This document shows positions 2,078 through 59,555 of a stretch of DNA of 59,827 bases, piece after piece. Source of the stretch: an uncultured bacterium (lineage in GTDB: Bacteria; Hydrothermota; UBA3072; B12-G15); assembly GCA_964596115.1 (NCBI GenBank), contig CAZQRW010000004.1, positions 4,500 through 64,326 of the forward strand, written 5' to 3'. The position numbers were made by a program, and so were the translations under genes. The notes under the pieces were generated by a model. That model ran no database searches and was not told where the DNA came from. It worked only from the letters and a program-made list of their open reading frames with translations. The number at the start of each line of letters is the position of its first letter. Positions within the stretch are counted from its first letter, which is position 1.

Positions 2078-2277
2078 TTTTCCTCCCTTAGGTAGAATAT
2101 TTCATCTACCCTTGTATTGAAGATTTTCGCAATCTTTAATGCAAGTTCCACAGATGGATTATAACTCCCCTTTTCAATGGCAATAATCGTCTGACGAGAA
2201 ACACCAACTTTCTTTGCAAGTTTATCCTGTGTCATATCAAATTTTGCCCTCCACACCTTCAAATTATTATTGACCAT
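2074..2277 (-). CDS. XRE/Cro-C1 family helix-turn-helix regulator
   Basis: MTQDKLAKKVGVSRQTIIAIEKGSYNPSVELALKIAKIF is a typical HTH_3 signature. Confidence 0.93.
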   Translation of the reverse strand: MVNNNLKVWRAKFDMTQDKLAKKVGVSRQTIIAIEKGSYNPSVELALKIAKIFNTRVDEIFYLREEK

Positions 2278-2283
2278 ACATAT

Positions 2284-2311
2284 ATTATATACAAAATTTC
2301 TAATTTGTCAA
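2284..2311 (-). promoter_or_regulatory. Promoter TTGACA-N16-TATAAT, 6 nt before the ATG (leaderless)
   Basis: Consensus hexamers; no SD before the ATG at 2277. Confidence 0.75.
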
Positions 2312-2343
2312 GCCTACTTTACTTTTTGTAAAGTTTTAATTAC
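2307..2343. promoter_or_regulatory. Tandem candidate XRE operators GTCAAG-N4-CTTTAC and GTAAAG-N4-AATTAC
   Basis: Two imperfect palindromes offset by 21 bp; the first overlaps the -35. Confidence 0.5.
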
Positions 2344-2504
2344 TTCATATTACGGCCTTATTAAGACAAGGTAGAGGCAAAGATAAAGAAACAGACAAGA
2401 TAAAGGTAGAGAAAGGAGAACAACGTAAACGATAGGATATAGGGGATAGGGAAATAGATGCACTTGCCTTTAAGAAAAATTTGCTAGATAAAATCTATAA
2501 ATAA

Positions 2505-2532
2505 TTGACATTTATTCTTGCTATGATAGACT
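2505..2532 (+). promoter_or_regulatory. Promoter TTGACA-N16-TAGACT with TG extension, 6 nt before the tsaC ATG (leaderless)
   Basis: Hexamers read directly; no SD. Confidence 0.7.
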
Positions 2533-2538
2533 TATTTT

Positions 2539-3108
2539 ATGCAAAAAAATCCTGTTCAACTTTTGAAAAAAGGAAGGGTTATCGGTTTCCCTACAGATAC
2601 CGTTTATGGTATGGGATGTATATTATCCGAAGAATGTGTAAAAAAACTGGTTAAATTGAAAGGGAAAAGAGCAAAGCCCTTTGCAATATTTCTTTCTTCT
2701 CCAGATAAGGTCAATATATATGTTACTGAAATAAAGCCTTATGTAAAAAATTTGATGAATTGTTTCTGGCCAGGTCCGCTAACCCTTGTATTTTACGGGA
2801 ATCCATTGCTGCCTGAAGGAGTCCTTTCAGAAGAAAAAAAGGTTGGAATAAGAATTCCCAATAATAAAAAAATCCAGGAATGGCTTAAAGACATAGAAAA
2901 ACCATTAATTCAGACAAGTGCAAATAAATCAGGGAAACCTTCGCCTTTGTCAGATATCGATGTAAAGATAAAACTTGACTACCTTGTTCCTGGAAAATCA
3001 TCCCTGGGGGAACCCTCCACTGTCCTGGATGTAACGGGTAGCATTCCTATAATTCTAAGGGAAGGAACTATAAAAGAACAAGAAATATTAAAATGTTTGG
3101 AGGAATAA
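2539..3108 (+). CDS. tsaC: L-threonylcarbamoyladenylate synthase (YrdC domain only)
   Basis: FPTDTVYG, FWPGPLT, VGIRIP and TSANKSG motifs. Confidence 0.93.
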   Translation: MQKNPVQLLKKGRVIGFPTDTVYGMGCILSEECVKKLVKLKGKRAKPFAIFLSSPDKVNIYVTEIKPYVKNLMNCFWPGPLTLVFYGNPLLPEGVLSEEKKVGIRIPNNKKIQEWLKDIEKPLIQTSANKSGKPSPLSDIDVKIKLDYLVPGKSSLGEPSTVLDVTGSIPIILREGTIKEQEILKCLEE

Positions 3109-4500: not shown

Positions 4501-5522
4501 ATGGATAATATCTATGTCCTTGTTGCTTTATTACTTCTTTTAGGACTTTTCCTCGGTAAATTATTGCGAAAGGTAGGTTTAACAGAGATACTTGCATATA
4601 TCTTTGCTGGTATTACAATAGGGCCTATTTTGAAATTCAAACCACCCAATCAATTTTATCCTATTATTACTGCAATTACACTTGCGTTTGTTGGTTATAT
4701 GGTAGGCCTGAGTTTTCCTTTTGCCTTCCTTAAGAAAATGGGGAAGAAAATCTTTATTATATTAATAGTAGAAGTAATTGTCACCTCCATTTCTGTATGA
4801 TTATTTACATACTTATTTACGAAGAACATGCCGTTATCCATAATTTTGGCCTCTCTTGCCCCTGCCACTGCTCCAGCAGGAACAATAGCCGTTTTAAGGG
4901 ATCTCAGGGCAAAAGGAAGGCTCACCGAGGTGTCTATTGCTATAGTTGGTCTCGATGACGCTGCAGCAATTTTCATCTATCACCTGACCACACATTTGTA
5001 GTAGGTATTCCCATAGCCATTCTCAGTTGGGGAGCTGCTGATTTACTTGGCGTATCTAATATCCTTACTTGCATGGCATTGGGAACAGTGATGATTAATT
5101 TTAACAGACCTGTGGGGATTCGCTCTTCGCGACTGTTAGATAGCATTATGACCCCTGTATTTATTCTGTTTTTCTCTGCTATTGGTATGGGGATAAATTT
5201 TTCGCAATTTATGTCCGGGTGGTTAATTGCTATTACATATTGCGTTGGCAGAAGCCTTGGCAAGGTAATCGGTTGTAGCCTGGGTAGTATCCTCTCAAAA
5301 TCTGAATCGAAAATTACAAAATACCTTGGAATTGCATTACTCAATCAGGCTGGTGTCGCTGTAGAGCTTGCATTCCTTGCAGCACAAGAATTAGCAAAGT
5401 ATAATATAGGTAGTTTTATAATCACTTTAATGGCAACTACTACCGCATTCTTCCAATTGGTCTCTCCCCTGGATCAATTTGCTATCAAAAAAGCAGGTGA
5501 GGCAAGAGAGACTCTTGGTTAA
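4501..5522 (+). pseudogene. Cation:proton antiporter (CPA2/NapA-like) pseudogene
   Basis: In-frame TGA at 4798-4800, after which the frame continues (LAPATAPAGTIAVL...GLDDAAA). Frame switch near 4980 into TFVVGIPIAILSWG...NQAGVA...KKAGEA. Total length is short for the family. Confidence 0.88.
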
Positions 5523-10939: not shown

Positions 10940-11773
10940 TTAATCAACTATAACCAATACCCGGCACTGCTGAAGAAAATTAAGGTTTTCACTATACTGA
11001 TGAATCTTCATCGCATCATTGGGGGAAATAATAATATCCGTCTTATTAGTGCCTGTTACACCAATCCCTTTTATAATAAGTGGGTTAGGCTTCACCCTTT
11101 CATCCTGTCTTGCCTGATTAAAATTCTTGGCATAGCCAACAATACCCATCTTAATGGCATAATCGTGTGAAACAAATCCTGTTCCATAGACCTCCACTCC
11201 ATCTGGTGTCAATATCTTTGGTGCCATTGCAGGTTGCACTTTAAGTCCCCTTGCATCTATAATGAGTCCTGTATATATCCCTCCTTGTTGCGGTTGGATT
11301 ATTGGATTCATCCCTCCCATCTCGGGTGGAAGCAGTGTTGCTGTCATATCCCCAGTAATTGGAACTTCAACATCGACCTCTATGGATCCATCAGACATAT
11401 ACCTAATATCTGTTACGGTAAAATTTCTAATTATACCCTGTATTCTAGTACTTATAACATCTGAGGCAGTCATAGCATTCTCAACCGTAGTTTGAGCATC
11501 TATATAAACCCCTTTTATGATTTCCAGTACGTTTCTAAATGCATCAAGTTTCGCAGCTCTTATAGCACCTGGCCTTTGCGCAGCCACAGGAAGATCAGGG
11601 TTGGGCGCACCTATTCCAGTTACTACTATAATCCCCTTTGTCCAATCAATACCACCATACTCAGTCTTTTGGATGAAATCATAGTTTACAAGGATATTAC
11701 TATTTTGAGTTTCGGTTTGAGCAAATAACATTATACTCCCCAATAAAATAAAACTTATCTTCTTTATACCCAT
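10940..11773 (-). CDS. Secreted LPP20-like domain protein
   Basis: IDWTKGIIVVTGIG, AIRAAKLDAFRNVLE, YTGLIIDARG...PAMAPKI. Start at 11773 (AAGGAGGTG SD). No lipobox Cys. Confidence 0.8.
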   Translation of the reverse strand: MGIKKISFILLGSIMLFAQTETQNSNILVNYDFIQKTEYGGIDWTKGIIVVTGIGAPNPDLPVAAQRPGAIRAAKLDAFRNVLEIIKGVYIDAQTTVENAMTASDVISTRIQGIIRNFTVTDIRYMSDGSIEVDVEVPITGDMTATLLPPEMGGMNPIIQPQQGGIYTGLIIDARGLKVQPAMAPKILTPDGVEVYGTGFVSHDYAIKMGIVGYAKNFNQARQDERVKPNPLIIKGIGVTGTNKTDIIISPNDAMKIHQYSENLNFLQQCRVLVIVD

Positions 11774-11817
11774 AAAGCACCTCCTTTTAAGATTTAACTC
11801 GATCAAAACCTAAAAAA

Positions 11818-11845
11818 ATTATACCTTTTGAGTTAGTACTGTCAA
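11818..11845 (-). promoter_or_regulatory. Perfect-consensus promoter TTGACA-N16-TATAAT of the envelope operon
   Basis: Both hexamers are exact consensus. Confidence 0.8.
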
Positions 11846-13228: not shown

Positions 13229-13256
13229 TTGACTTTAACCAGATTAAGAATAATAT
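13229..13256 (+). promoter_or_regulatory. Promoter TTGACT-N16-TAATAT, 6 nt before the ftsK ATG (leaderless)
   Basis: Hexamers read directly; no SD. Confidence 0.7.
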
Positions 13257-13262
13257 AAGATT

Positions 13263-15524
13263 ATGAGAATTTTTTACGCGTTCATACTACTTGTATTTTT
13301 GTATTTATTAATAATGGGCATCTATTTTTCCTTAAAGGATATGGGAGATGAGAAGAAGAGAAGAATTAACGGTTTCCTCCTGTTATTTCTTTTCGTCATT
13401 ATTTTCTTAAGCCTTATCTCTTTTTTTATTCATCCGATACCAACAAAAAACATCTTTGGACTCACGGGATATTACCTTTCGAAGCTGCTATTTCATAGCT
13501 TTGGCTTGTCTACCTTTATTCTTCCATTTCTGCTTCTACTTGCATCCATCTCATTATTCAAAAACGATGTAAAAAAATTTTTCTATAAATATGGGGCATT
13601 TACCGTTGGTTTATTCATTGTTCTACTTCTATCTATATCTCTTCTCCCAGTAGGGTATATGAAAAAAGGTTATCTTGGAAAAATTGCTGGGAGTTTCCTT
13701 GTATCAAAAATAGGTATTTATGGTTCCATCATTCTAATCGCCTTTCTCTTTTTTATTCTGATTTATTCTTTCAGCCATCTTGTATTCCATATTACCATTA
13801 TGCACATCCCTTCCAGAAAAAAATTAAAAAAACAGGAACGAATACCACTCGCAACGTTAGGCACAAGAAATGTACCAACAAAAAATAAAGTATCACAAGG
13901 CTTGCAAAAACGACAATTTTCTCATCCCATTTCAAGTATAAATAATTATAGTGACAAATTCCTTAAAATACTTACAGAGCCTATCCAGGAAGGCAAGGAA
14001 GGCAGAAGATACTTAAAGGAACTTTCCTTCCGTGTTGAGGAAAAACTGAAGGATTTTGGCGTAAATGGCAGGGTCGTAAATACGATCGTTGGGCCAGTCA
14101 TAACGAGGTTTGAATACAAACCCTCTCCTGGCATCAAAATATCTAAAATAGAAGCACTCGCAGATGACCTTGCAATGGCATTGAGAGCAGAGAAGATAAG
14201 GATACTTGCTCCTATTCCAGGAAAAGAGGTTGTGGGAATTGAAATACCGAACAGAAATAGAGAAATCGTATTCCTTAAAGAATTATTGACAACTGAAACA
14301 TTTCTTTCCAATAACTCCCCTTTATTTATTCCTGTCGGTAAGGATATCACCGGGGAGCCCTATTTTGCAGATATCTGGGATATGCCCCATCTGCTTGTAG
14401 CCGGGGCAACAGGCTCAGGAAAGAGTGTGTTTCTAAACGCAATGATAGCAAGCATACTCTATAAAGCTGGTCCCGAAAGGGTAAGGTTTATAATGATTGA
14501 CCCTAAGAGGATAGAACTTTCCATATATAATGGCATACCTCATCTTCTTGGAAGCGTTATAACAGAGGCGGATACAGCTATGAGGGCACTAAAACAGGCA
14601 CTCCACTGTATGGAGGAAAGGTATAAGGAGTTTGCAAAGATTGGGGTAAGGGATATAAAAGGTTATAATGAAAAACAAAAAGAGAAAATGGCCTACATAA
14701 TTTTTGTTATAGATGAACTGGCGGATCTTTTGTTATCAAAGGGTAGAGAGGTTGAATCGGCATTGATAAGACTTGCACAGATGGCAAGGGCAGTGGGTAT
14801 TCATCTTGTCCTTGCAACCCAGAGGCCCTCTGTAGATGTAATAACGGGCCTTATTAAGGCAAATTTCCCATCGAGAATATCCTTTCAGGTTGCCTCAAGG
14901 AATGATGCAAAAACGATTATGGATAATACTGGTGCAGAAAAACTCCTTGGTAGAGGAGACATGCTCTTTATTCCTCCAAAGAGTGGAAGCCCGATAAGAC
15001 TTCATGGACCATATATATCGACTGAAGAAACCAAAAAAATTGTATACCTTATAGGTGGAAAATATATAGAAGGGTTAATGAAACACAATTTTAAAAGAAG
15101 CGACGAAATTGCTAAACTCATAATAGAAGAAGATGTACTTGACGCAATAGCAAATCCGTTAGTCCCGGCTGGGGAAGAAAGACTTGAAAATTTTGCAAGG
15201 TTTTTGGAGAGAGAGATTGGTGTCTCTGCAAATGAATTCAAAAGATTCGTTGAAGAACTTGAATACTACCCTCCTCTATTAGAATTTGATATGCCTTTGC
15301 CCGTAACAACAGAAGAGGGATATTTAGAAGGGGAATGGGACGAGCTATTTGAAGAGGCAAAACGGATTGTAATAAGACACGGGACTGCCTCCGCCTCTCT
15401 CCTTCAGAGAAAATTGAAGATAGGTTTTGCTCGAGCTGGAAGGTTGATTGACCAGTTGGAAAAGGCCGGCATTGTTGGTCCATTTAAGGGTTCAAAATCA
15501 AGGGACGTTCTGATAAAAGAATGA
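13263..15524 (+). CDS. ftsK: DNA translocase FtsK/SpoIIIE
   Basis: N-terminal TM helices; MPHLLVAGATGSGKS; IDELADL; ATQRPSVDVITG; gamma domain SASLLQRKLKIGFARAGRLIDQLE. Confidence 0.96.
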   Translation: MRIFYAFILLVFLYLLIMGIYFSLKDMGDEKKRRINGFLLLFLFVIIFLSLISFFIHPIPTKNIFGLTGYYLSKLLFHSFGLSTFILPFLLLLASISLFKNDVKKFFYKYGAFTVGLFIVLLLSISLLPVGYMKKGYLGKIAGSFLVSKIGIYGSIILIAFLFFILIYSFSHLVFHITIMHIPSRKKLKKQERIPLATLGTRNVPTKNKVSQGLQKRQFSHPISSINNYSDKFLKILTEPIQEGKEGRRYLKELSFRVEEKLKDFGVNGRVVNTIVGPVITRFEYKPSPGIKISKIEALADDLAMALRAEKIRILAPIPGKEVVGIEIPNRNREIVFLKELLTTETFLSNNSPLFIPVGKDITGEPYFADIWDMPHLLVAGATGSGKSVFLNAMIASILYKAGPERVRFIMIDPKRIELSIYNGIPHLLGSVITEADTAMRALKQALHCMEERYKEFAKIGVRDIKGYNEKQKEKMAYIIFVIDELADLLLSKGREVESALIRLAQMARAVGIHLVLATQRPSVDVITGLIKANFPSRISFQVASRNDAKTIMDNTGAEKLLGRGDMLFIPPKSGSPIRLHGPYISTEETKKIVYLIGGKYIEGLMKHNFKRSDEIAKLIIEEDVLDAIANPLVPAGEERLENFARFLEREIGVSANEFKRFVEELEYYPPLLEFDMPLPVTTEEGYLEGEWDELFEEAKRIVIRHGTASASLLQRKLKIGFARAGRLIDQLEKAGIVGPFKGSKSRDVLIKE

Positions 15525-15984: not shown

Positions 15985-16012
15985 TTGACAATTGGACTAT
16001 TAGAACTATAAT
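15985..16012 (+). promoter_or_regulatory. Perfect-consensus promoter TTGACA-N16-TATAAT
   Basis: Exact hexamers; short leader with GGAGG SD. Confidence 0.8.
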
Positions 16013-16032
16013 CGAAAAAAGGAGGTAAATGA

Positions 16033-18468
16033 ATGACAATTTTAATTGTGCTTTTAATGTCTCAGATCCCTCAAAATATATTAAAGGCTGTCTCACAGAA
16101 ATCTATTCCAGCCATCTCTCAAAAACAACAAACATATAGAACTTTTCCGGAAAGTCTTATATTGAAGATGCAAACACAGCCTTCTGAGATTGAAAAGATG
16201 TATAACAATTACGGTCTTGCAATCAAAGGGATAAAGATGGAATCTTTATTTATTGATTCATTAGCAAATATAAGAAAATATGTAGGTAAAAAAGAAAAAC
16301 CTTCAGAGTATTTAAAAACCCTTGAACTTGCCGGTTTAAAAGCAGACACTATCAAAGGAATAATTTTTAAGACAAGGGTTGAAACACTAAACATCGGATT
16401 AAAGCAATTTGGTTATAACTTATTTAATATTTTATTCCCCAGAACTATTTCTATTCCTACTGTTGCGCCTACCGACAACTATATTCTGGGCCCTGGAGAT
16501 GAAGTCGATATAAATATCTGGGGTAATATGGAAAATAACCTAAATCCTATTGTGGACAACAGTGGAAATATTTTTGTAAGTGGATATGGTAATATTTTGG
16601 TGGGAGGAAAGACCTTTAAAGAGGCAAGAAAGACTATAATCAATAAGCTCAAAACAAAATTTGCTAATATTTATGTAGGTGTCTCTCTCGGAAGACTAAG
16701 AATGATAACCATCCATCTTGTTGGAGAGTTCTATCTACCAGGCAATTATACTATCTCTCCAAATAGTTCTATCCTTTATGCCTTATTCCAGGGGGGAGGA
16801 CCTAACAAAAACGGGTCTCTAAGAAATATAAAAATAATATCGCGCTCAAAAAAAACCCGGATAATCGACCTCTACCAACTAATGGTAAGCGGTAAATCGC
16901 TTCCACCTATTCAGTTTAATGACGGTGATATTATTTTCGTACCACCTATCGGGAAAACTGCTGCTATCGGTGGGGCTGTTAAAAGGCCTGGGATATATGA
17001 ACTAAAACCAAACGATAATATGAAATTACTCCTCAAGATGTCTGGCGGAGTGTTGCCAACCGCATATACAAAAAGGATTGAAATTGAAAGGGTAAAGGGG
17101 CACAAAACGAAGGTTGTCTATGATGAAAATTTTACTTCTTATGAGGATTTTGTGAAACAAGAGAATTTGATAAGAATCCAGGATGGTGATCTCATTATGA
17201 TATACCCTGTTAACAAAATAAGAAAGGGATACGTTTCCGTTTCGGGCAATGTAATGTATCCTGGGGAATATAAACTTGATAAGAATGTGCACTTATTTTC
17301 TCTTTTAAAAAAGGCAGGTATAAAGAGGGGAACATATATGGAAAGAGGTGAAATTTTAAGATATCTCACAGACTCTACAAGAAAAATAATAGGATTCCCT
17401 CTGCAGAAAATACTGAGCGATTCAACCCTTGATACATTTAAACTTGCCGAATGGGATAGCATTGTTTTATTTCCTAAAGACATTGTAAAATCAAGAGAAT
17501 TTGTAAATATCTATGGCGCAGTAAATAACCCTGGCACATATACACTTACCCCTGGACTTACCCTGGGTGACCTTCTCTTTACGGCAGTCCCTCAAGCAGG
17601 CGCCAACCTTCAGAATTGCGAATTGATTAGAAAAAAGGGAGAAAAGTTTGTTATTAAAAAAGTTGATCTCACAAAAGATCAAAATCTGAAGATCCCTTTA
17701 AAATTCAGAGATAACCTTATAATAAAAGGGGAAGCACTGTTCCCAAGAAATGTTGTTATCACAGGAGAGATCAAGTTTCCTGGACAATACATTTTGCGTA
17801 CGAACGAAACCCTGAAGTCTTTAATTGAGAGGGCTGGAGGATTACTCGAAGATGCATATATTGAAGGTATTGTTCTTACGAGGAAGACTGTAAAGGAATT
17901 ACAGGGTGAAGCAATGCAGGATCTCCTCACCAATGCAAGAAAAAGCGTATTAAATCAGCAGTCAATACTGCTCTCAGAACGGGGTACCGCTGCCGAATTA
18001 CAATCAAAACAGAGCATTTTAAACCAACAATTACAATTAATTCAATCATTAAGTACAGAAAACGTAACAGGTAGGGTGGCTATTCCATTTAGACAATTAA
18101 AAAACCTGAATATTACGCTTGAAGATGGGGATTCTTTATACATTCCTAAAATACCTTCTACTGTTCAGGTTATTGGGGCAGTATACAATCCGGCTGGTTT
18201 TATCTTCAACGAGAAACTAAAGGTAAGAGATTACATTGATCTTGCCGGAGGATTGATGCCAGATGCAAATAGAAAAGCGATATATGTTAGAAGGGCATCA
18301 GGAATTTCGGTAAAAAGGCCTCGAAAATTAAAAAGAGGGGATACGGTAATCGTTCCTAGAAAAACAAGTGCCCCCAGGTCATTGATGGACACGATAAAAG
18401 ACCTTGCATTAATTGCCTACGAGATGGGTGTAGCAATAGCATCTTTAAACACCCTTCTTAAAAAATAA
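16033..18468 (+). CDS. Polysaccharide export protein with multiple SLBB domains (Wza/KpsD-like)
   Basis: YILGPGDEV.INIWG (Poly_export) and repeated V.GEV..PG.Y SLBB units. Confidence 0.9.
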   Translation: MTILIVLLMSQIPQNILKAVSQKSIPAISQKQQTYRTFPESLILKMQTQPSEIEKMYNNYGLAIKGIKMESLFIDSLANIRKYVGKKEKPSEYLKTLELAGLKADTIKGIIFKTRVETLNIGLKQFGYNLFNILFPRTISIPTVAPTDNYILGPGDEVDINIWGNMENNLNPIVDNSGNIFVSGYGNILVGGKTFKEARKTIINKLKTKFANIYVGVSLGRLRMITIHLVGEFYLPGNYTISPNSSILYALFQGGGPNKNGSLRNIKIISRSKKTRIIDLYQLMVSGKSLPPIQFNDGDIIFVPPIGKTAAIGGAVKRPGIYELKPNDNMKLLLKMSGGVLPTAYTKRIEIERVKGHKTKVVYDENFTSYEDFVKQENLIRIQDGDLIMIYPVNKIRKGYVSVSGNVMYPGEYKLDKNVHLFSLLKKAGIKRGTYMERGEILRYLTDSTRKIIGFPLQKILSDSTLDTFKLAEWDSIVLFPKDIVKSREFVNIYGAVNNPGTYTLTPGLTLGDLLFTAVPQAGANLQNCELIRKKGEKFVIKKVDLTKDQNLKIPLKFRDNLIIKGEALFPRNVVITGEIKFPGQYILRTNETLKSLIERAGGLLEDAYIEGIVLTRKTVKELQGEAMQDLLTNARKSVLNQQSILLSERGTAAELQSKQSILNQQLQLIQSLSTENVTGRVAIPFRQLKNLNITLEDGDSLYIPKIPSTVQVIGAVYNPAGFIFNEKLKVRDYIDLAGGLMPDANRKAIYVRRASGISVKRPRKLKRGDTVIVPRKTSAPRSLMDTIKDLALIAYEMGVAIASLNTLLKK

Positions 18469-23909: not shown

Positions 23910-23937
23910 TTGACATTGATTATAAAGTAAATATCAT
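23910..23937 (+). promoter_or_regulatory. Promoter TTGACA-N16-TATCAT, 6 nt before the ATG at 23944 (leaderless)
   Basis: Hexamers read directly; no SD. Confidence 0.7.
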
Positions 23938-23943
23938 TGGATG

Positions 23944-25317
23944 ATGAAAGAAATACTCATAAAAAAACTTGCCGATATTGTAGGAAAAGGGAATATACTT
24001 TCTGGTTCTGATCAATTAGAACAGTACAGCAGAAATGAAACACCTGGCAATTATGTATTCATCCCTGATGTCGTTATAAAACCAAATTCTGCAGCTCAAA
24101 TCTCCCTCATCTTAAAAGTGGCGAATGAACTCAAAGTTTCTATTGTCCCAAGAGGAGCTGGAACAAGCAGATGCGGTGGTTCACTTCCTGTAACAGGTGG
24201 CATCGTTCTTTCACTCGAAAAAATGAATAAAATAAAAGAACTGGATAAAGAAAACCTTCTACTTACGGTAGAACCAGGCGTAATAACAGGTGAAATAAAT
24301 AGGTATCTTGAGCCTTATAACCTTTTTTATCCACCTGACCCTGCAAGCATTGATTCCTGCTCTATAGGTGGCAATGTAGTAACAAATGCAGGAGGACCCA
24401 GATGCCTGAAGTACGGAGTTACAAGAAACTACATAATGGAACTTGAGGTTGTATTCCCTGAAGGAAATATAGAAAGATTAGGTGGCAAGGTATTAAAAAA
24501 TGTCACAGGCTATAATCTTATGCAGCTATTAATAGGGTCTGAAGGCACGCTTGGGATTATTACTGAAATTGTATTGAGGCTTCTTCCGAGAAAAAAATTT
24601 TTCATTACACTTCTTGTCCCATTTGATATATTAGAAACTGCAACAGAGAGTGTAAATACTATCCTGAGTAAGGGTTTTCTTCCAGTAACAATGGAATTTA
24701 TTGATCGAGATTGTTCAATTACTATGAAAGAAAATTTAAATATGGAAATTCCATACGAAGGTTCTGAGGCATTTCTCCTTATTGAACTTGAAGGAAATGA
24801 TAAATCAAGGCTCGAATCCGAGTATGAACACCTTGGAAATGAATTAATTAATATGGGGGCAAAAGACGTCTTTGTTGCAGAAGAAAGACCCCAAAGAGAA
24901 AAGCTATGGGAATACCGCAGATCTATAGCAGAAGCCCTCGAAAAGAAAGGAGAGATTCTTCCTGAGGATGTTGTTGTACCACGCTCTGAAATCCCCAAAT
25001 TTATTACATTTGTAAAAGATCTTGGGAAAAAATTCTCAACAGAAATATACACATTCGGTCATATAGGTGATGGTAATATCCATATAGATATATTGAAGGG
25101 TCCCAACTTCGAAGAATACAGAGAAGAAATGCTGGAGCAATTATTTAGGGGTGTGAATAGATACAACGGGAAGATTAGTGGAGAACACGGAATAGGCTTT
25201 ACGAAGAAAAAATATCTTCATTTTTCTGTATCCTCGTATCAAATAGAACTGATGAAAAGGATAAAGAAGGTAATTGACCCCAATAATATTTTAAATCCAG
25301 GTAAAATATTTGATTAG
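23944..25317 (+). CDS. FAD-linked oxidoreductase (GlcD / D-lactate dehydrogenase family)
   Basis: VPRGAGTS; YPPDPAS; IGGNVVTNAGG; GSEGTLGI; GHIGDGNIH; SGEHGIG; LNPGKIF. Confidence 0.92.
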   Translation: MKEILIKKLADIVGKGNILSGSDQLEQYSRNETPGNYVFIPDVVIKPNSAAQISLILKVANELKVSIVPRGAGTSRCGGSLPVTGGIVLSLEKMNKIKELDKENLLLTVEPGVITGEINRYLEPYNLFYPPDPASIDSCSIGGNVVTNAGGPRCLKYGVTRNYIMELEVVFPEGNIERLGGKVLKNVTGYNLMQLLIGSEGTLGIITEIVLRLLPRKKFFITLLVPFDILETATESVNTILSKGFLPVTMEFIDRDCSITMKENLNMEIPYEGSEAFLLIELEGNDKSRLESEYEHLGNELINMGAKDVFVAEERPQREKLWEYRRSIAEALEKKGEILPEDVVVPRSEIPKFITFVKDLGKKFSTEIYTFGHIGDGNIHIDILKGPNFEEYREEMLEQLFRGVNRYNGKISGEHGIGFTKKKYLHFSVSSYQIELMKRIKKVIDPNNILNPGKIFD

Positions 25318-26206: not shown

Positions 26207-26234
26207 TTGACTTTCAAAAGAATATACGTATAAT
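26207..26234 (+). promoter_or_regulatory. Promoter TTGACT-N16-TATAAT, 9 nt before the ATG
   Basis: Hexamers read directly. Confidence 0.65.
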
Positions 26235-26243
26235 AAGTTAAGG

Positions 26244-26807
26244 ATGGAAATAAAAGAAGCAATATTTCGTTTCTATGAAGAACTAAATGATTTTCTGCCC
26301 ATAGAGAAGAAAAAAATCTCCTTCTCCTACTCTTTCAATGGGAGTATCAAAATAAAGGATGCCATATCATCCCTTGGTGTTCCCTGCTCAATGGTAGATC
26401 TCATTCTTGTAAATGGAAAATCTGTTGATTTTTCCTATCATCTTAAGAATAAAGACAGGATTTCGGTATATCCCGTTTTTGAAACACTGGACATATCAGA
26501 TGTTACACATTTAAAAAATAGACCATTGCGTAAATCAAAATTCATCGTGGATATGCATCTTGTAGGATTGGAAAGACAACTCTCCAGGCTTGGCTTCAAC
26601 ATTATCCATAAACATTCTGAAAGGGAAATTGTTAATACCTCTTTAGTTGAAAAACGGATTATCTTAACCAAAGACAAAAAAATATTGAAATATAAAAATG
26701 TTACCCGCTGCTACCTTGTCAAATCAAATAGTCCAGAAAAACAATTAAAGGAAGTTCTCCATAATTTCAGCCTTTATAAAAAAATTCAAGCAAATGAAAG
26801 TCCCTAA
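26244..26807 (+). CDS. Mut7-C ubiquitin-like + PIN RNase domain protein, apparently C-terminally truncated
   Basis: FRFYEELNDFLP; SLGVP..VDLILVNG; KFIVDMHL; RIILTKD. The usual Cys zinc ribbon is absent. Confidence 0.82.
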   Translation: MEIKEAIFRFYEELNDFLPIEKKKISFSYSFNGSIKIKDAISSLGVPCSMVDLILVNGKSVDFSYHLKNKDRISVYPVFETLDISDVTHLKNRPLRKSKFIVDMHLVGLERQLSRLGFNIIHKHSEREIVNTSLVEKRIILTKDKKILKYKNVTRCYLVKSNSPEKQLKEVLHNFSLYKKIQANESP

Positions 26808-43120: not shown

Positions 43121-43727
43121 CTATTTTCCTATTTTCAGGGAGGATTATCCCTCCAGAAACCGCAATTCTAAATCCCCAATCCACTGGAATATCTGTTTCA
43201 ATAAGATCCTTAACTGGGTATAAAAGATAAAAACCTGTTGTTATATTTGGAACAGTAGGTACAAACACATTACAGTAATACTCATCCCCAATTTGCCACT
43301 TTTCTTCATTTGTCATAAATGCAATGGTTCTGCTCTCTTTAGAGGGAAAATGAATAATGACTACCTTGCTGAATGCAGATCTGTCAATAAAAATTGTGTC
43401 TGTAAGTTTTTTTGCAGCTGTATATACCCCTTTTATTAAGGGAAGCCTTTCCATAACTCTATTGAAGAGTTTAACAAAGACTCTACCTATATATCCAGAA
43501 GCAAACACGCCTATGAGATAAATCAAAATAACGAGGATGATCAATCCGATAAGAGATTTTACAAACTCGGGGACCATTTCAAAATGGGGAAGATAGATGA
43601 GATATCTCCCTATTAAACCACCCAGTTTTTGCACCAGGAACCAGATAACAAAAATTGTAAGACCTAAGGGGAGAATAGCGGCAATGCCAGCCAAAAAGTT
43701 TCTTTTCCATCGGGTTTTTGTTCTCAT
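43113..43727 (-). CDS. DUF502 family membrane protein
   Basis: FLAGIAAILPLGLT; RLPLIKGVY; FVPTVPNITTGF. Start set at ATG 43727 from promoter geometry. Confidence 0.85.
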   Translation of the reverse strand: MRTKTRWKRNFLAGIAAILPLGLTIFVIWFLVQKLGGLIGRYLIYLPHFEMVPEFVKSLIGLIILVILIYLIGVFASGYIGRVFVKLFNRVMERLPLIKGVYTAAKKLTDTIFIDRSAFSKVVIIHFPSKESRTIAFMTNEEKWQIGDEYYCNVFVPTVPNITTGFYLLYPVKDLIETDIPVDWGFRIAVSGGIILPENRKIDV

Positions 43728-43733
43728 ATATTT

Positions 43734-43763
43734 AATATATACCATCATAAAAGTAGGTGTCAA
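43734..43763 (-). promoter_or_regulatory. Promoter TTGACA-N18-TATATT, 6 nt before the ATG at 43727 (leaderless)
   Basis: Hexamers read directly; the ORF-track start TTG is the -35 itself. Confidence 0.55.
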
Positions 43764-43808: not shown

Positions 43809-43854
43809 TGTGACTTGACAGAACTGTATGTCTTGATATAAAATAAGTAGGAAA

Positions 43855-44916
43855 ATGAAAATACTCCATACAGCAGATATTCATTTGAGAGAGTACGATG
43901 ACGATAGATGGAAAACACTCCAGAAACTTATCCAGATAGGCAAAAAAGAAGATGTAGAAATCTTTGTCATAAGTGGGGATCTCTTTGACAGGGGCATAGA
44001 TGCAGAAGTCCTAAAAATAAAAATAAGGGATCTATTCTCCAACAACGGGTTCAAAATCCTTTTTATACCGGGAAACCATGATAAAAACTCGTATAAAACA
44101 GGTATATATTTTGGAGATGATGTTGTTATTTTAAACGAGATAAGCAAGTCCTTTAAGTATAAAGACGTAGAAATATGGGGGATGCCCTTTGAACCCATTA
44201 AAGGGGAAACAATCCTGAATAGACTCCATTCACTGGCAAAAAGTTTAGACCCTAAAAAGAAAAATATCCTGCTCTATCATGGTGAATTGCTCGACGCCTT
44301 CTTCTCAAGAAAAGATCTCGGGGATGAGGGTGAAGAAAGATATATGCCTGTAAAGCTATCCTATTTCAAGGATTTAAAGATCGATTATGTGCTCGCTGGC
44401 CATTTTCACTCACGATTTGATTTCTGGAGGCTACAGAGTGGGGGATATTTTGTATATCCTGGTTCACCTATCTCAATCACCCGAAGGGAGACTGGCAGGA
44501 GAAAGGTAAATCTATTTGAGGTAGGGAAGCCACCCCAAGAATATCCCCTTGACTCCCCTTACTACGAGGAGGTAGTCATTAAACTTGATCCAATTAAAGA
44601 CAAAAATCCTGTTGAGAATGTTAAGACTCGCCTCAGCAATCTACCTCCAGAAGCTATGGTTTTATTAACTGTTAAGGGATTTATAAACGGAGAAGTGATA
44701 ATGATGAGCGAGAAAGAATTAAAAATGGAAATAGACAGAATCACAGGGAATAAATGCATTGAAAAAAGATATGAATTCAGTGATATAAGGAGAATTCTTG
44801 AGGATGATTTATTTAAGAAATTTATGGAGAAGCTTCAAGAAACTGATTTAAACGAAGAAAAAAAGAGAGAAATGAGAGACCTGGCAATCGAAGCGATGAT
44901 GGAAACAATGCAATGA
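43855..44916 (+). CDS. SbcD/Mre11-like DNA repair exonuclease (YhaO-like metallophosphoesterase)
   Basis: HTADIHL; SGDLFD; PGNHD; YHG; LAGHFH; YPGSP. Confidence 0.92.
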   Translation: MKILHTADIHLREYDDDRWKTLQKLIQIGKKEDVEIFVISGDLFDRGIDAEVLKIKIRDLFSNNGFKILFIPGNHDKNSYKTGIYFGDDVVILNEISKSFKYKDVEIWGMPFEPIKGETILNRLHSLAKSLDPKKKNILLYHGELLDAFFSRKDLGDEGEERYMPVKLSYFKDLKIDYVLAGHFHSRFDFWRLQSGGYFVYPGSPISITRRETGRRKVNLFEVGKPPQEYPLDSPYYEEVVIKLDPIKDKNPVENVKTRLSNLPPEAMVLLTVKGFINGEVIMMSEKELKMEIDRITGNKCIEKRYEFSDIRRILEDDLFKKFMEKLQETDLNEEKKREMRDLAIEAMMETMQ

Positions 44917-48594: not shown

Positions 48595-48622
48595 TTGCAT
48601 AAAAATCTGGATATCGTAAAAT
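48595..48622 (+). promoter_or_regulatory. Promoter TTGCAT-N16-TAAAAT, 5 nt before the ATG at 48628 (leaderless)
   Basis: Hexamers read directly; no SD. Confidence 0.55.
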
Positions 48623-48627
48623 GCCTT

Positions 48628-50133
48628 ATGGAAAAGACATTCCTTAATTTTATCTCAAATATAGAGAATCCTCTTAACCTGGAAATAAATAGTCTCCAAA
48701 AGTTGAATGTAAAACTTAATAGTTTCTTGGAATATGTAAAGTTAGCCAACAGATCTGAGTTAAAACATATAAGGAAGATCGATGGAATACTCAGAGATAT
48801 GAATGCATTTTTAGAGCTCAGCAAAATTTATGATGCAAATGCGTATTACTATAGGGATAGAAATTATGAATTATACCTTTTAAACAAATATCAGGCCTTA
48901 TTGAATAGGGTACAGGCATATGCAACAGAGCACACAAAACAAGAACTGGAATACTTTCTTCACAAAACGAGAGAAACTTTTTATCCGCTATACCCCAGAT
49001 TGATGAATTTGTTAGGTGTTTATTACCAGTTATATGAGTATGATTTCAGCTCTGCCATAGAGCATTACCAGTCTGCCATAAACGTACTAAAAGGTATTGA
49101 TAAGGTTACATTCGAATCCCAATCCTCATTGTCCTATGAGGGTACATTTCGACTTTTTATGAATAATATGTTGGATGCAATGATTCGTTCGCCAGAACCA
49201 GAGAGATACCTAAAAGAAATCCATCTTATTAGGGATTACCTTTTTGACTCAGAAGCTCAAATATCCAACGAAGCAAGGCTTGACATAGCAGAACTCTTTG
49301 CCAAGATGGGCAAATCAAAAATAGCAAGCAATCTCTTATCCTCCATAGAGATGAGTAAAATGAAGAATATAAATTTTTACTATCCTCAGATAAATAGGGT
49401 AAAATCTATCATAGCCTTAAAGACAGGTAATTTATCAATTGGATTTGATTCCGTAGTAAAATCTTTTAGATTGTGCTTCCAAGTTGGAAAACCTATCTCA
49501 CAAAAAACAAATATGGTAACCCTCTTTTCTACGATCAATGATCTTCTCACAGGGATAGGCCTAAAGGAAAGAATATCTATGTTTAAGGAAAAGGGTTTTT
49601 TAGATCTCATCATAAATGTTCTGGAAACAAAAGATAGGTACCTTGCAATAGAACATTCCAAAAATGTGGCAAATCTATCCCTGAAACTCTGGAAAATCCT
49701 TGGAGGAGACGAAAAATATTATGATCATATCTATTTTTCAGGATTGTTCCATGATATTGGCAAATTATCTATCCCCTGGTTAACATTGAGTAAACCATTC
49801 TCTCTGGATAATATTGATAGAGAAATATTGAGGTATCATTCCCTTGAAAGTTATAAACTACTAAATTTACTTGGTTTCGAGGAAGAGGCAAAGGTTGCAG
49901 GAAACCATCATGAGAGAATCGACGGTTCTGGTTATCCATTGGGTAAAAAAAATTTGACAATAGACTCAGAAGTAGTGGCAATCGCTGACGTATTTCAGGC
50001 AGCTTCCTCCCCAAATAGAAACTACAAAAATCCAAAGGGCAAAGAAGAAATACTCAAAGAGATTGAAAATGATGTCAATAATAATAAATTCCACAGGAAA
50101 ATTTATGAGGCACTTCTCCTCGCCGTGAAGTAA
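48628..50133 (+). CDS. HD-GYP phosphodiesterase with helical/TPR-like N-terminal region
   Basis: EHSKNVA; FHDIGK; NHHERIDGSGYP; ADVFQA; RNYK. Confidence 0.88.
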   Translation: MEKTFLNFISNIENPLNLEINSLQKLNVKLNSFLEYVKLANRSELKHIRKIDGILRDMNAFLELSKIYDANAYYYRDRNYELYLLNKYQALLNRVQAYATEHTKQELEYFLHKTRETFYPLYPRLMNLLGVYYQLYEYDFSSAIEHYQSAINVLKGIDKVTFESQSSLSYEGTFRLFMNNMLDAMIRSPEPERYLKEIHLIRDYLFDSEAQISNEARLDIAELFAKMGKSKIASNLLSSIEMSKMKNINFYYPQINRVKSIIALKTGNLSIGFDSVVKSFRLCFQVGKPISQKTNMVTLFSTINDLLTGIGLKERISMFKEKGFLDLIINVLETKDRYLAIEHSKNVANLSLKLWKILGGDEKYYDHIYFSGLFHDIGKLSIPWLTLSKPFSLDNIDREILRYHSLESYKLLNLLGFEEEAKVAGNHHERIDGSGYPLGKKNLTIDSEVVAIADVFQAASSPNRNYKNPKGKEEILKEIENDVNNNKFHRKIYEALLLAVK

Positions 50134-50152: not shown

Positions 50153-50180
50153 TTGACTGATTGGATTTATCAATTATAAT
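50153..50180 (+). promoter_or_regulatory. Promoter TTGACT-N16-TATAAT, 6 nt before the ATG (leaderless)
   Basis: Hexamers read directly; no SD. Confidence 0.75.
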
Positions 50181-50186
50181 CCATCT

Positions 50187-51080
50187 ATGGAGAAAAAAAA
50201 GAGGGCTAGAAAAAAGCTTGAAGATTTTATAAAAATCCGATGGCTCCGTATCACTATCAGGGAATTTTCTGAAATAATTAATAATTTCATTAAACATGGT
50301 GGAACATTACTTGCCGCCGCAATTTCATTTTATACGATACTGTCCGTAGTACCATTTTTGCTCGTTTTTACATCTATCATAGCCCAAATAATCCATTCCT
50401 CTGGGTCTGCATTACAAGAAACCCTCTCCTTTATAACGAGGCTTTTCCCATCCTCAGGGGATGTAGCCATAGGATATATAAATGCACTTGTAAGTAGAAA
50501 ACTTACCTTTGGAATAATAGGTGGATTGGCATTCTACTGGGCTGGTAGCAGGACGTTTGAGATTATGATTGTAGCTGTTGAGAGAATATATGAAAGGAAG
50601 GAGAGAGGATTCTTTATGCATCAAAAATTGTTCTCCTTTGCCCTGATCCCGATCCTATTAGCGACCTTTGCACTTTTTGTAGGATTATCAAAGGGTATCG
50701 TATTTTTAAGGGGACTTATTTCTATTGGAACAACACCATCAGAGGTTTCATTCATAACTTCGTTTTCAAACAATCTTCTCATAGTAGGCATCGCGACAGG
50801 TTTTTTCTTCATTCTTTACAGGGTCTTCTCTTATAGAAATACAGATAGCGTTTCTGCACTTTCAGGGGCATTATTTACTTCAATACTAACAATGGTAGTA
50901 AAGTACCTCTTTGATTGGTATATTAGAAATTTCAATCATTTCGGAAAGATATATGGGAGTCTTTCAGCAATAATCATAGCCCTTTTATGGATCTACTATA
51001 CCTCTATAATATATATCATAGGGGCTGAGCTTACCGCCTACATCCACAGAAAAAGGATAAAAAATCTAAAACTTACTTAA
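50187..51080 (+). CDS. YihY/virulence factor BrkB family membrane protein
   Basis: LAAAISFYTILSVVPF; YGSLSAIIIALLWIYYTS.IYIIGAE. Confidence 0.92.
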   Translation: MEKKKRARKKLEDFIKIRWLRITIREFSEIINNFIKHGGTLLAAAISFYTILSVVPFLLVFTSIIAQIIHSSGSALQETLSFITRLFPSSGDVAIGYINALVSRKLTFGIIGGLAFYWAGSRTFEIMIVAVERIYERKERGFFMHQKLFSFALIPILLATFALFVGLSKGIVFLRGLISIGTTPSEVSFITSFSNNLLIVGIATGFFFILYRVFSYRNTDSVSALSGALFTSILTMVVKYLFDWYIRNFNHFGKIYGSLSAIIIALLWIYYTSIIYIIGAELTAYIHRKRIKNLKLT

Positions 51081-52667: not shown

Positions 52668-53105
52668 TTAACCTCCTACTTTTTTAAAAAATTTTTTAAT
52701 GATATCCTTCGCATCTTCTATAGTATCGTAATGTCCCACTACTATAGAGGGGGAGCCCGAAATCATTGCAGACAATAGCTTGCCATTACCCGGCCTATAA
52801 AGACAGAGAATAGGTTTTTTGTTTTCTACGGCTACACCTATTTCATAACCAACTCCAAGGCTGGGTGTTGTGACCTCTGCCACAACGATATCTGCCTCTT
52901 TCAAAAGTTCCATATCCCTCTTATGGATCTCGCTATCTTTTAACCTTACCTCACCTTCTTCCCTTGTTGCTTCATCTCCAACGAATTCTGTGAGAACCTT
53001 GCCAAATCCTTTGAGGTATAAGATTAAGTTGTGGTATATCTGGACATCATTCCTTCCAGCCCTTATAGCACCAGAAAAATAAATTTTTCTTTTATCACCT
53101 TTCAC
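52668..53105 (-). CDS. Nucleoside 2-deoxyribosyltransferase family, DNPH1/Rcl-like 2'-deoxynucleoside 5'-phosphate N-hydrolase
   Basis: IYFSGAIRAGRND; VLTE; IHKRDMELL; VVAEVTTPSLGVGYEIG; LSAMISG. Confidence 0.88.
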   Translation of the reverse strand: MKGDKRKIYFSGAIRAGRNDVQIYHNLILYLKGFGKVLTEFVGDEATREEGEVRLKDSEIHKRDMELLKEADIVVAEVTTPSLGVGYEIGVAVENKKPILCLYRPGNGKLLSAMISGSPSIVVGHYDTIEDAKDIIKKFFKKVGG

Positions 53106-53111
53106 GTTTTT

Positions 53112-53139
53112 AGTATATCAATTCTATGCCTAATTTCAA
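53112..53139 (-). promoter_or_regulatory. Promoter TTGAAA-N16-TATACT, 6 nt before the GTG (leaderless)
   Basis: Hexamers read directly; no SD. Confidence 0.65.
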
Positions 53140-54117: not shown

Positions 54118-54120
54118 AAG

Positions 54121-54147: not shown

Positions 54148-54168
54148 GCCTTAATTAAAAAAAACCCA

Positions 54169-56398: not shown

Positions 56399-56399
<1 letters not shown>

Positions 56400-57673: not shown

Positions 57674-58076
57674 TTTCCCCCTCAAAGAAGAAAGGAATTT
57701 CTTTTTTTGCATTCTCTAATGAGTCTGATGCATGAACAGCATTCTTCTGAATATCGGTCCCATATAGTTTTCTTATCGTACCTTCCCCTGCCTTTGCTGG
57801 ATCTGTTGCTCCAATAATTTTTCTAAGTACTTCTACCGCATTCTCACCTGATAATTTAATTGCCAATATTTTCCCTGAAGTCATAAAATCAATTAGAGCT
57901 TCATAAAAGGGTTTCCCTTTATGTACTGCATAGAATTTCTCTGCCTTTTCACGGGAAAAATGATCCATCTTCATATCCTCTATTCTAAGAGGAGATGCTT
58001 CTATTAATGATATTACTTTCCCAATAACCCTCTTTTTTACTGCATCAGGTTTTATTATTAGCAGTGTGCTTTCCAT
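57666..58076 (-). CDS. ndk: Nucleoside-diphosphate kinase
   Basis: TLLIIKPDAV; GATDP; GTIR; NAVHASDS. Confidence 0.96.
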   Translation of the reverse strand: MESTLLIIKPDAVKKRVIGKVISLIEASPLRIEDMKMDHFSREKAEKFYAVHKGKPFYEALIDFMTSGKILAIKLSGENAVEVLRKIIGATDPAKAGEGTIRKLYGTDIQKNAVHASDSLENAKKEIPFFFEGENG

Positions 58077-58084
58077 TCTAATGG

Positions 58085-58113
58085 AGAATAATAGGAATTA
58101 ATGTGTTTGTCAA
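58085..58113 (-). promoter_or_regulatory. Promoter TTGACA-N17-TATTCT, 8 nt before the ndk ATG
   Basis: Hexamers read directly; no SD. Confidence 0.6.
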
Positions 58114-58118
58114 TAGGA

Positions 58119-58136
58119 TTGTGAAATTTTTAACAA
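58119..58136. promoter_or_regulatory. Rex operator-like site TTGTGAA-ATTT-TTAACAA
   Basis: One mismatch to the Rex consensus TTGTGAAnnnnTTCACAA; 5 nt upstream of the ndk-ackA-nfnAB -35. Confidence 0.72.
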
Positions 58137-59519
58137 TCAAATTCTGTCAGGATTTAATTTCTTCTCCCATTTTCCTCTTTTGAACCAGAATAATCCCCAG
58201 ATAGAAATCACTATATTTGATAGAAACATCGAAATCCATATTCCAATGGGGCCCATATGAAATACAAGTGCCAGAAGATATGAAAATGGTACTCTAATTC
58301 CCCACAATCTTACAATGTTCAGCACCATTGGAGGCTTTGTATCTCCTGCCCCCTGGAACGCTCCATTGAGAACCATAAGTATCCCAAAGAATACAACGGA
58401 AGGGGATATTATCCTGAAGAGTATTACACCCCACTTTGTAACTTCAGGGTCATTTGGTATGAAAAAATGTACGAAGGAACTGCCAAAAAAGAATGTAAAG
58501 GTCATACCGATAAGAAGAAACACACCAACGATTATAATCCCTGCTTTAACAGACTTCCATGCCCTTTTTATCTCCCTTGCACCGAGGTTCTGACCAACCA
58601 TAGTGGTTACCGCCCTCCCAATACCCATTGCTGGCATATTGAATAATCCAACGATCCTGTTTCCTATCCCAAAGGCAGCGACCACAGCAGAGCCAAAATA
58701 ATTAACCACACCCTGAAGCACAGTAAAGCCAAGGGCTGAAACAGACTGACCGATGGAAGAGGGAAAACCTATCTCAAAGATCAATCTCAATGCCTTTCTA
58801 TCGGGTTTCAGATTTCTCCACTTCAATTGCAATCCTTTCTTTCCTTGGACGAGAATAGCAATGCCAATAAACGAACCTACGGAACGGGAAATTACGGTCC
58901 CGATGGCTGCACCAACCACCCCCATTTTGGGGAAGGGCCCAATTCCAAATATAAGAAGGGGGTCAAGAAGAATATTAAAGGATACAGCTATTCCCTGTAT
59001 CCATAAGGGAGTAATTGTATCACCAATGCCCTGGAGGCTTGCCTGAAGAATAAATGTGCCGAACATAAATGGGATGCCCATAAGAATAATTCTCATATAT
59101 TTACTCGTGTATATGAATGCATCAGGAGGTGTCTTTAATATTCTCAGGACAGGGTTTGTAAAAATTACTCCAATTACTGAAATAAGAATGGAGAGCACTA
59201 CAAGGGTCACAGTCGTCTGCCCGAGATAAAAATCAACCTTCTCCCTGTCATTTTTCCCCTTTGATTGTGCAATCAATGTCGTCCCCGCCATTGAAAAACC
59301 AAAACCAAATGCAATAAGGACAAATATTACATTAAAGGTGATGGCAGGCGCTGCAAAGACTGATTTCCCCAGCTTCCCCAGGAAAAAAGCATCTATTATA
59401 TTGTACAGGGTCTGGAAACTATTCGCAAGCATTATGGGGATTGCAAGACGGAGGAGTATACCTGTAATATTTTTACCCTTCGTTATGTCAGTTAAATTAC
59501 GCCTGGGTTTAATTTCCAT
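58137..59519 (-). CDS. MATE family efflux transporter
   Basis: LAIP.MLANSFQTLYNIIDAFFLG; LQGIGDT.TP; MGVVGAAIGT; GAFQGAGDTK; about 12 TM helices. Start at 59519. Confidence 0.93.
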   Translation of the reverse strand: MEIKPRRNLTDITKGKNITGILLRLAIPIMLANSFQTLYNIIDAFFLGKLGKSVFAAPAITFNVIFVLIAFGFGFSMAGTTLIAQSKGKNDREKVDFYLGQTTVTLVVLSILISVIGVIFTNPVLRILKTPPDAFIYTSKYMRIILMGIPFMFGTFILQASLQGIGDTITPLWIQGIAVSFNILLDPLLIFGIGPFPKMGVVGAAIGTVISRSVGSFIGIAILVQGKKGLQLKWRNLKPDRKALRLIFEIGFPSSIGQSVSALGFTVLQGVVNYFGSAVVAAFGIGNRIVGLFNMPAMGIGRAVTTMVGQNLGAREIKRAWKSVKAGIIIVGVFLLIGMTFTFFFGSSFVHFFIPNDPEVTKWGVILFRIISPSVVFFGILMVLNGAFQGAGDTKPPMVLNIVRLWGIRVPFSYLLALVFHMGPIGIWISMFLSNIVISIWGLFWFKRGKWEKKLNPDRI

Positions 59520-59526
59520 ATGGAAG

Positions 59527-59555
59527 ATATTAAGGGCACAAGTATATATTGTCAA
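59527..59555 (-). promoter_or_regulatory. Promoter TTGACA-N17-TAATAT, 7 nt before the ATG (leaderless-like)
   Basis: Hexamers read directly; no SD. Confidence 0.65.

Follow-up and report, generated by a model that had tools for sequence, protein, structure and literature searches.

Genes with a promoter directly before the start codon

We analyzed a 59,827-nt stretch of DNA from an uncultured bacterium (contig CAZQRW010000004.1, positions 4,500 to 64,326; hereafter the window), which is densely coding and has a GC content of 37%. An original prediction, made from the sequence alone, held that many operons of this lineage begin leaderless, that is, with the promoter lying so close to the start codon that the mRNA would begin there. 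We read the 70 nt upstream of each claimed start and of each open reading frame (ORF) of at least 70 aa, and scored promoters as matches out of 12 over the -35 and -10 hexamers, with thresholds of 9/12, 10/12 or 11/12. All nine genes listed in the prediction as having a -35 and a -10 hexamer, a gap of 5-7 nt and no Shine-Dalgarno (SD) sequence were found as described: each carries a -35 hexamer that agrees with TTGACA at 4-6 of its 6 positions, a spacer of 16-18 nt and a TAnnnT -10 hexamer that is followed 5-7 nt later by ATG (GTG in the DNPH1-like gene), and an SD core precedes none of them. The 18-nt spacer that had been singled out in the DUF502 promoter is also present. The nine genes are given below with the -35 hexamer, spacer, -10 hexamer, distance to the start codon (lengths in nt) and start codon.

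2275..2311, minus strand: XRE/HTH_3 regulator, 67 aa; TTGACA-16-TATAAT-6-ATG
2505..2541, plus strand: tsaC/Sua5-YciO-YrdC, divergent from the XRE gene; TTGACA-16-TAGACT (with a TG extension)-6-ATG
13229..13265, plus strand: ftsK; TTGACT-16-TAATAT-6-ATG
23910..23946, plus strand: FAD-linked oxidase (glcD-like); TTGACA-16-TATCAT-6-ATG
43725..43763, minus strand: DUF502; TTGACA-18-TATATT-6-ATG
48595..48630, plus strand: HD-GYP-type HD-domain gene, 501 aa in public calls; TTGCAT-16-TAAAAT-5-ATG
50153..50189, plus strand: yihY/BrkB; TTGACT-16-TATAAT-6-ATG
53103..53139, minus strand: nucleoside 2-deoxyribosyltransferase-like (DNPH1-like) gene; TTGAAA-16-TATACT-6-GTG
59517..59555, minus strand: MATE efflux gene; TTGACA-17-TAATAT-7-ATG

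The names of these genes all match the Pfam results. The XRE gene heads an operon with a DUF2178 gene and a 132-aa gene, and GGAGG stands before the downstream genes. The FAD oxidase starts at the second ATG of an ATGATG (23944), and AGGAGG precedes the upp gene downstream of it, as it does the transglutaminase-like gene downstream of the DNPH1-like gene.

Two near cases that had been proposed, ndk at 8 nt and Mut7-C at 9 nt, have the distances claimed for them, and we added an sbcD-like gene at 10-12 nt.

58074..58113, minus strand: ndk; TTGACA-17-TATTCT-8-ATG, expected leader 0-2 nt
26207..26246, plus strand: Ub-Mut7C/Mut7-C; TTGACT-16-TATAAT-9-ATG, leader ~2-3 nt
43815..43857, plus strand: sbcD-like phosphoesterase (start 43855); TTGACA-18-TAAAAT-10-ATG, or TATAAA at 12 nt

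With ~4-6 nt, the sbcD-like gene has a leader that could not accommodate SD pairing. Its promoter and that of DUF502 stand back to back and diverge, ~50 nt apart (43764-43814), and between them lies a short palindrome, CTGCAT-N5-ATGCAG, that could be an operator. A search of two divergent intergenic regions for inverted repeats gave nothing convincing.

Other transcription units of the window have conventional leaders, as illustrated by two genes with perfect promoters.

15985..16035, plus strand: polysaccharide-export gene; 12/12 promoter TTGACA-16-TATAAT (15985-16012), ~14-nt leader with AAGGAGG, ATG
11760..11845, minus strand: first gene of the 10.9-5.6 kb lipoprotein/TPR operon; 12/12 promoter (11845-11818), ~45-nt leader with AAGGAGGTG, ATG

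A third such gene is serS (22531-23826, minus strand), with a TTGACA-17-TAATAT promoter and a leader of ~60 nt. Its start is likely the ATG at codon 17 of the ORF, which follows AAGGAGAG; the ORF stays open for 16 codons further upstream, and the Pfam N-domain begins at residue 17 of the ORF.

Altogether we counted ~23 transcription units in the window: nine leaderless-type (5-7 nt), three with a leader of at most ~6 nt, ~7 SD-led and ~4 unclassified. Leaderless-type units thus number 9-12 of ~23 (~39-52%), and the word 'pervasive' used in the prediction holds for some 40-50% of the units, not for all of them. In this small sample, regulators, membrane proteins and housekeeping enzymes make up most of the leaderless genes, and the operons for POR, buk/pta and polysaccharide export have SD-bearing leaders, a split between gene classes that fits earlier surveys (PMC3160421).

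Host lineage and DNA compared

Near-identical sequence was present in ~20 DNA metagenomes, whose source was hydrothermal vents and marine sediments. FtsK homologues that had a source name (41-69% identity) were nearly all labelled 'candidate division WOR-3 bacterium'. In current NCBI taxonomy WOR-3 is Caldifarciminota, and the look-up places the lineage only under Pseudomonadati; membership of the FCB group, which the look-up does not show, would be an assumption. Judged by these sequence matches, the host is an uncultured WOR-3 (Caldifarciminota) bacterium of hydrothermal-vent metagenomes.

An FtsK search of genome contigs yielded one relative only (locus L001). The WOR-3 ftsK set comprised ten loci, namely the window, L001 and L090-L097, which range from 29% to 51% in GC; their proteins share 42-60% identity with the FtsK of the window. 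Pooled WOR-3 DNA amounted to 251 kb including the window, and the independent DNA of the relatives to 190 kb. As a negative control we used 75 unrelated acetate-kinase loci (L007-L081; 1.02 Mb), some as AT-rich as the window, that were left from an acetate kinase scan of metagenomes which had returned mostly unrelated bacteria. The HD-GYP protein gave no match as a query in the metagenome scan. Scans of the window for tRNA genes and Rfam families were both empty, which leaves no riboswitch or leader RNA to be taken into account.

Shine-Dalgarno sequences mark internal and leadered genes

The absence of SD sequences before the nine genes contrasted with the rest of the window. Within 20 nt upstream of the start, an SD core occurs at 0/9 leaderless genes, at 20/26 operon-internal genes and at 4/4 leadered first genes. 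Twelve of the 20 SD-bearing internal genes have the full GGAGG, as the prediction for operon-internal genes had stated, and internal and leadered genes together have it in 15 of 30 cases. The same dichotomy appeared when we used public gene calls, which are independent of the promoter scan, for the WOR-3 loci. A promoter of at least 9/12 lies 5-8 nt before 20 of 48 first-in-operon genes (42%), and another 20 of the 48 have an SD motif. Among 81 internal genes, by comparison, five have a promoter at this distance and 48 have an SD motif.

Promoters are coupled to start codons at a fixed distance

Promoter matches scoring 10/12 or better were each combined with all in-frame starts located 0-60 nt further downstream, for ORFs of 70 aa or longer. 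The window gave 25 such pairs, nine of which fell at 6-8 nt (p = 1.7e-6). Over all WOR-3 DNA the distances peaked at 6 nt (22 pairs), with 39 of 127 pairs at 5-8 nt; removing the window left 102 pairs, 30 of them at 5-8 nt and 17 at exactly 6 nt. The control loci had 10 of 262 pairs at 5-8 nt and no peak (Fisher p = 5e-13), which indicates that the pairing procedure does not generate the peak. A genome-wide histogram of this kind had been proposed as a check on the prediction. For the DNA sampled the outcome supports the prediction: the window and the 190 kb of relatives' DNA each show a peak at 6 nt, and the controls show none.

A stricter search used the exact pattern TTGAC-N17-TANNNT-N6-ATG, which matched five times in the window, every time at a gene start, against 0.05 +/- 0.22 expected from 100 dinucleotide shuffles; 0/100 shuffles reached five. 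Among 97 loci the pattern was confined to WOR-3 loci, and none of L002-L081, a range that includes the 1.02-Mb control, contained it.

Anatomy of the promoter-start module

We compiled 28 leaderless promoters, ten of them at ftsK. Of these, 23 have a 16-nt spacer, and the distance from the -10 to the start codon is 6 nt in 16, 5 nt in four and 7 nt in six. The -35 is strong throughout, with at least 4/6 matches in 28/28 and TTGAC in 21/28. Two elements stand out as conserved: TTGACA, 34 nt ahead of the start codon, and TAnnnT, the 3' end of which is 6 nt ahead of it. The start codon is ATG in 26 cases, GTG in two and TTG in none. At position -1 the leaderless cases have T in 23/28 and A in none, whereas SD-led genes have A in 16/30; at +1 the base is a purine in all 28. 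Transcription usually starts at a purine preceded by a pyrimidine, so these bases match the signature of a transcription start. Moreover, the canonical +1 is the seventh nucleotide after the -10 hexamer, and with a gap of 6 nt this nucleotide is the A of ATG.

The 16-nt spacer is not peculiar to leaderless genes. It is the modal length across WOR-3 promoters (34/61 matches of at least 11/12), in contrast to the control loci, which were flat over 16-18 nt, and the leadered window promoters at 15985, 11845 and 32803 have it too. The same -35/-10 pair occurs 14-60 nt upstream of SD-led genes. The hexamers are near consensus, and the 16-nt mode lies at the lower edge of the classical sigma-70 range of 17 +/- 1 nt. 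From these motifs, the housekeeping-sigma promoters of the host look like TTGACA-N16-TAtaaT.

The module is conserved before ftsK in WOR-3 relatives

All ten WOR-3 ftsK loci have TTGAC(A/T), a spacer of 16-17 nt (15-17 by choice of -10), TAnnnT or GATAAT, a gap of 5-7 nt and ATG or GTG; on an alternative reading the gap in L094 is 8 nt. When the ten loci were aligned as DNA, the sole invariant upstream columns were TTGAC, the -10 positions A..AT and the start-codon TG. In the protein alignment the Met1 column is invariant. One public call seemed to depart from this: the call for L096 ftsK (733 aa) begins at an internal ATG that follows a GGGAGG within the ORF (L096 9871-10003). The promoter-adjacent ATG (L096 9905), situated 96 nt (32 codons) upstream of the start that was called, agrees with the sister locus L095, and on sequence comparison this 'exception' is a gene-call truncation of a leaderless gene.

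The flank contigs of the host (~15 kb) hold one further leaderless-type gene, of the PfkB family (L082 6962, minus strand; TTGACA-16-TATTTT-6-ATG), and several SD-led units. YjbQ is a leaderless-type gene in the complete WOR-3 genome CP070795.1 (L093 16027-16063; 12/12 promoter, 6 nt, ATG) and an internal operon gene with GGAGG in the host (L082 1887), suggesting that orthologues switch between initiation modes.

Probable leaderless initiation and its alternatives

The motifs, the statistics of their spacing, the dichotomy in SD use and the conservation in relatives are properties of the DNA itself. We consider it very probable that they reflect leaderless starts at ~40-50% of transcription units, with the promoter set against the start codon, while the other units and the internal genes are SD-led. 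Because the promoter places the start codon at the canonical +1, the transcript would begin at the start codon. RNA polymerase with the housekeeping sigma factor would thus start at the A or G of that codon, and the resulting mRNA would have neither a 5' untranslated region nor an SD sequence. A 70S ribosome with initiator tRNA would presumably bind the 5'-terminal AUG directly, a route established in other bacteria for mRNAs of this type (reviewed in PMC12340547). Downstream genes of these operons and the remaining, often metabolic, operons would use a conventional leader with a strong GGAGG, and the arrangement would be a trait of the whole WOR-3 lineage, beyond this genome. The claim that many operons of the lineage start in this way thus gains support from the 6-nt peak, the absence of SD sequences, the T at -1 and the ftsK footprint.

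Several points weigh against this interpretation. The ~4 unclassified units, which start at 4501, 22490, 47426 and 54117, could be placed in neither class. No RNA runs matched the window sequence when we queried with the 6-kb POR-buk region and with the porA gene, and the leaderless state is therefore an inference from the DNA. Initiation by 70S ribosomes, likewise, is extrapolated here from other bacteria. The sample, picked entirely around ftsK, consisted of 60 kb of host genome with ~15 kb of its flanks, plus ~175 kb of relatives' DNA, and the ten ftsK orthologues among the 28 compiled promoters are not independent of each other. Finally, the window has no excess of promoter-like matches at 9/12 (80 against 69.5 +/- 7.9 in shuffles), and the signal is therefore one of positional coupling to the start codon, not of promoter density.

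Of the alternatives, the one that survives best, though we think it unlikely, is that the adjacent promoters are real but minor, and that most transcripts come from upstream promoters or read-through and are translated from a leader in an SD-independent manner. Read-through is possible for yihY and ndk, which lie only 53-60 nt behind a co-directional gene, and no RNA run was matched that would constrain promoter usage. Against this, six of the nine genes are divergent or stand behind long gaps without a second promoter-like site, and the adjacent promoters are among the best consensus matches of the window (10-12/12). Nor would minor promoters explain the exact spacing to the ATG throughout the phylum, unless the start codon is the transcription start.

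It is also conceivable, but distinctly improbable, that the promoters are real and the starts mis-assigned, so that translation begins at a downstream in-frame codon and ordinary leaders merely resemble coding sequence. Gene callers do differ. MATE is 460 aa from the ATG in three assemblies and 472 aa in one JGI annotation (L084 8522) that starts at the TTG of the -35; ftsK of L096 has the internal call described above; and the ATG at codon 15 of the XRE gene has GGAGG 12 nt upstream. A start at this codon, however, would cut into the helix-turn-helix domain, and the other ten of 11 candidates have no SD-like motif before any downstream in-frame start in the first 50 codons. Pfam domains begin at residue 6 in XRE, 8 in tsaC, 8 in the DNPH1-like protein and 2 in ndk, and the N-terminal residues of FtsK, including the invariant Met1, are conserved as protein over the ten relatives. 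We rejected mis-assignment on these three grounds, the lack of SD-led alternatives, the Pfam N-termini and the conservation of FtsK Met1. As for the correction of ORF-track starts that the original prediction had announced, it applies to longest-ORF tracks, whose TTG 'starts' at 43763 (DUF502), 48595 (HD-GYP) and 59555 (MATE) are the TTG of the -35 hexamer; it is not needed for most public calls, which already pick the promoter-adjacent ATG, as in the 501-aa HD-GYP protein.

A third reading, which we regard as very unlikely, takes the AT-rich motif as a non-SD ribosome-binding signal of the kind found in Bacteroidota (group B of GeneMarkS-2), with no promoter involved. The GeneMarkS-2 survey did put 409 of 455 FCB-group genomes in group B (PMC6028130). 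But in group B the motif stands before internal genes as well; here only 5 of 81 internal genes of the WOR-3 loci have it, and 20 of 26 in the window show an SD core. A ribosome-binding signal would have no need of a near-consensus TTGACA at a fixed 16-nt spacing, and the same hexamer pair also stands 14-60 nt upstream of SD-led genes. Such a site was rejected because internal genes use GGAGG and TAnnnT is tied to a -35. An archaeal-type promoter was rejected as well, the conserved elements being a bacterial -35 and -10 with no box ~26 nt upstream.

Chance, whereby the TAnnnT and TTGACA-like hexamers that are common in 37% GC DNA fall before some starts by accident, finds a foothold in the 9/12 matches, no more frequent in the window than in shuffled sequence, and is nevertheless rejected as extremely improbable, given the shuffle test, the absence of the exact composite from L002-L081 with their equally AT-rich control loci, the sharp peak at 6 nt and the conservation of -35, -10 and start codon at ftsK while the flanks diverge.

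Returning to leaderless initiation, a broader form of it is that it is the ancestral, phylum-wide regime of WOR-3, built on a rigid 34-nt module TTGACA-N16-TAnnnT-N6-ATG that was kept for ftsK, with a sigma factor tuned to a 16-nt spacer and not to 17 nt. We give this proposal about an even chance. If it is true, a low-GC, largely thermophilic phylum joins the short list of strongly leaderless bacterial phyla, which bears on whether leaderless mRNAs are an ancient or a thermophily-linked trait.

Other features of the window and its flanks

One of the unclassified units begins with a metallo-beta-lactamase-fold gene (53299-54117, minus strand). It starts 9 nt past a GC-rich terminator-like hairpin with a T-run (54118-54168), and no recognisable SD or promoter was found before it. 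A gene of the Na+/H+ exchanger family (4501-5522) is split into ORFs of 99 aa and 149 aa, 272 nt apart, and is probably a pseudogene or the product of an assembly frameshift. The window holds two genes of the acetate/butyrate-kinase family, at 31677-32744 and 56399-57712. One is part of a pta/ptb-fabH-POR operon. The second overlaps ndk at the end of that gene, and its public start lies 13 codons into the longest ORF (424 aa). Past the right end of the window, between MATE and a 332/344-aa gene, there is a strain-variable island (L085 4112-8019) with an N6_N4 DNA methyltransferase, a SLFN/AlbA_2-domain gene and two further ORFs; one assembly has it and three others do not. It may be a restriction-modification or defence insertion.

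Implications for annotation

These results extend leaderless-rich expression to a candidate phylum. Their value is practical, for start annotation and promoter information, and they leave the general understanding of leaderless translation unchanged. Starts in metagenome-assembled genomes of WOR-3 get miscalled when callers expect an SD sequence: ftsK of L096 was cut by 32 codons, and MATE was extended into its -35. A leaderless-aware model (GeneMarkS-2 group C) is advisable for annotating these genomes, and the clean TTGACA-N16-TAtaaT consensus offers ready promoter information for an uncharacterised lineage. WOR-3 was only recently brought into culture (strain sy37; PMC12285271), so the prediction of leaderless transcripts can be tested directly.

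Comparison with known systems

The architecture is already known; it is that of GeneMarkS-2 group C, and the lineage is new for it. According to Lomsadze et al. 2018 (PMC6028130), group C takes in 1028 of the 4769 bacterial genomes surveyed; these are chiefly Actinobacteria and Deinococcus-Thermus, and 25-50% of their operons are predicted to be leaderless. As in group C, WOR-3 has a Pribnow box 6-8 nt before first-in-operon starts and SD sequences on internal and leadered genes, and in the ~250 kb sampled the leaderless-type fraction would be comparable (~39-52% of units in the window and 42% of first genes in the WOR-3 loci). Unlike the high-GC genomes of that group, WOR-3/Caldifarciminota is a low-GC phylum (29-51%), and almost every leaderless -10 comes with a near-consensus TTGACA. 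We searched the literature on WOR-3, candidate phyla and metagenome-assembled genomes and, within the library searched, found no paper on leaderless genes in WOR-3.

Aquificae and archaea offer further likenesses. In two of five Aquificae genomes, 20-32% of genes were predicted to be leaderless (Zheng et al. 2011; PMC3160421); these bacteria too are thermophilic and not high in GC, with a TAtaaT-type signal ~10 bp before the translation start. That survey is older than the WOR-3 genomes, and the -35 and its spacing lay outside its analysis. Archaeal group D likewise has mRNAs that begin with the start codon, and its internal genes retain SD sequences, but the box lies ~26 nt upstream, whereas the WOR-3 -10 ends 6 nt upstream.

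The closest parallel in detail is the '-10 region adjacent to ORF' of Deinococcus-Thermus, where TAnnnT has been validated experimentally as a -10 and ~1/3 to 60% of mRNAs are leaderless (PMC12340547, Zhong et al. 2025; PMC4007540, de Groot et al. 2014). WOR-3 shares the TAnnnT a few bp before the ORF, here as a predicted -10. In D. radiodurans, most such genes have no classical -35 and the -10 suffices; the WOR-3 genes have a strong one, and their spacer is 16 nt as against the optimum of 17 +/- 1 nt quoted for E. coli and B. subtilis. The strong consensus -35 and the modal 16-nt spacer are the features that WOR-3 has of its own.

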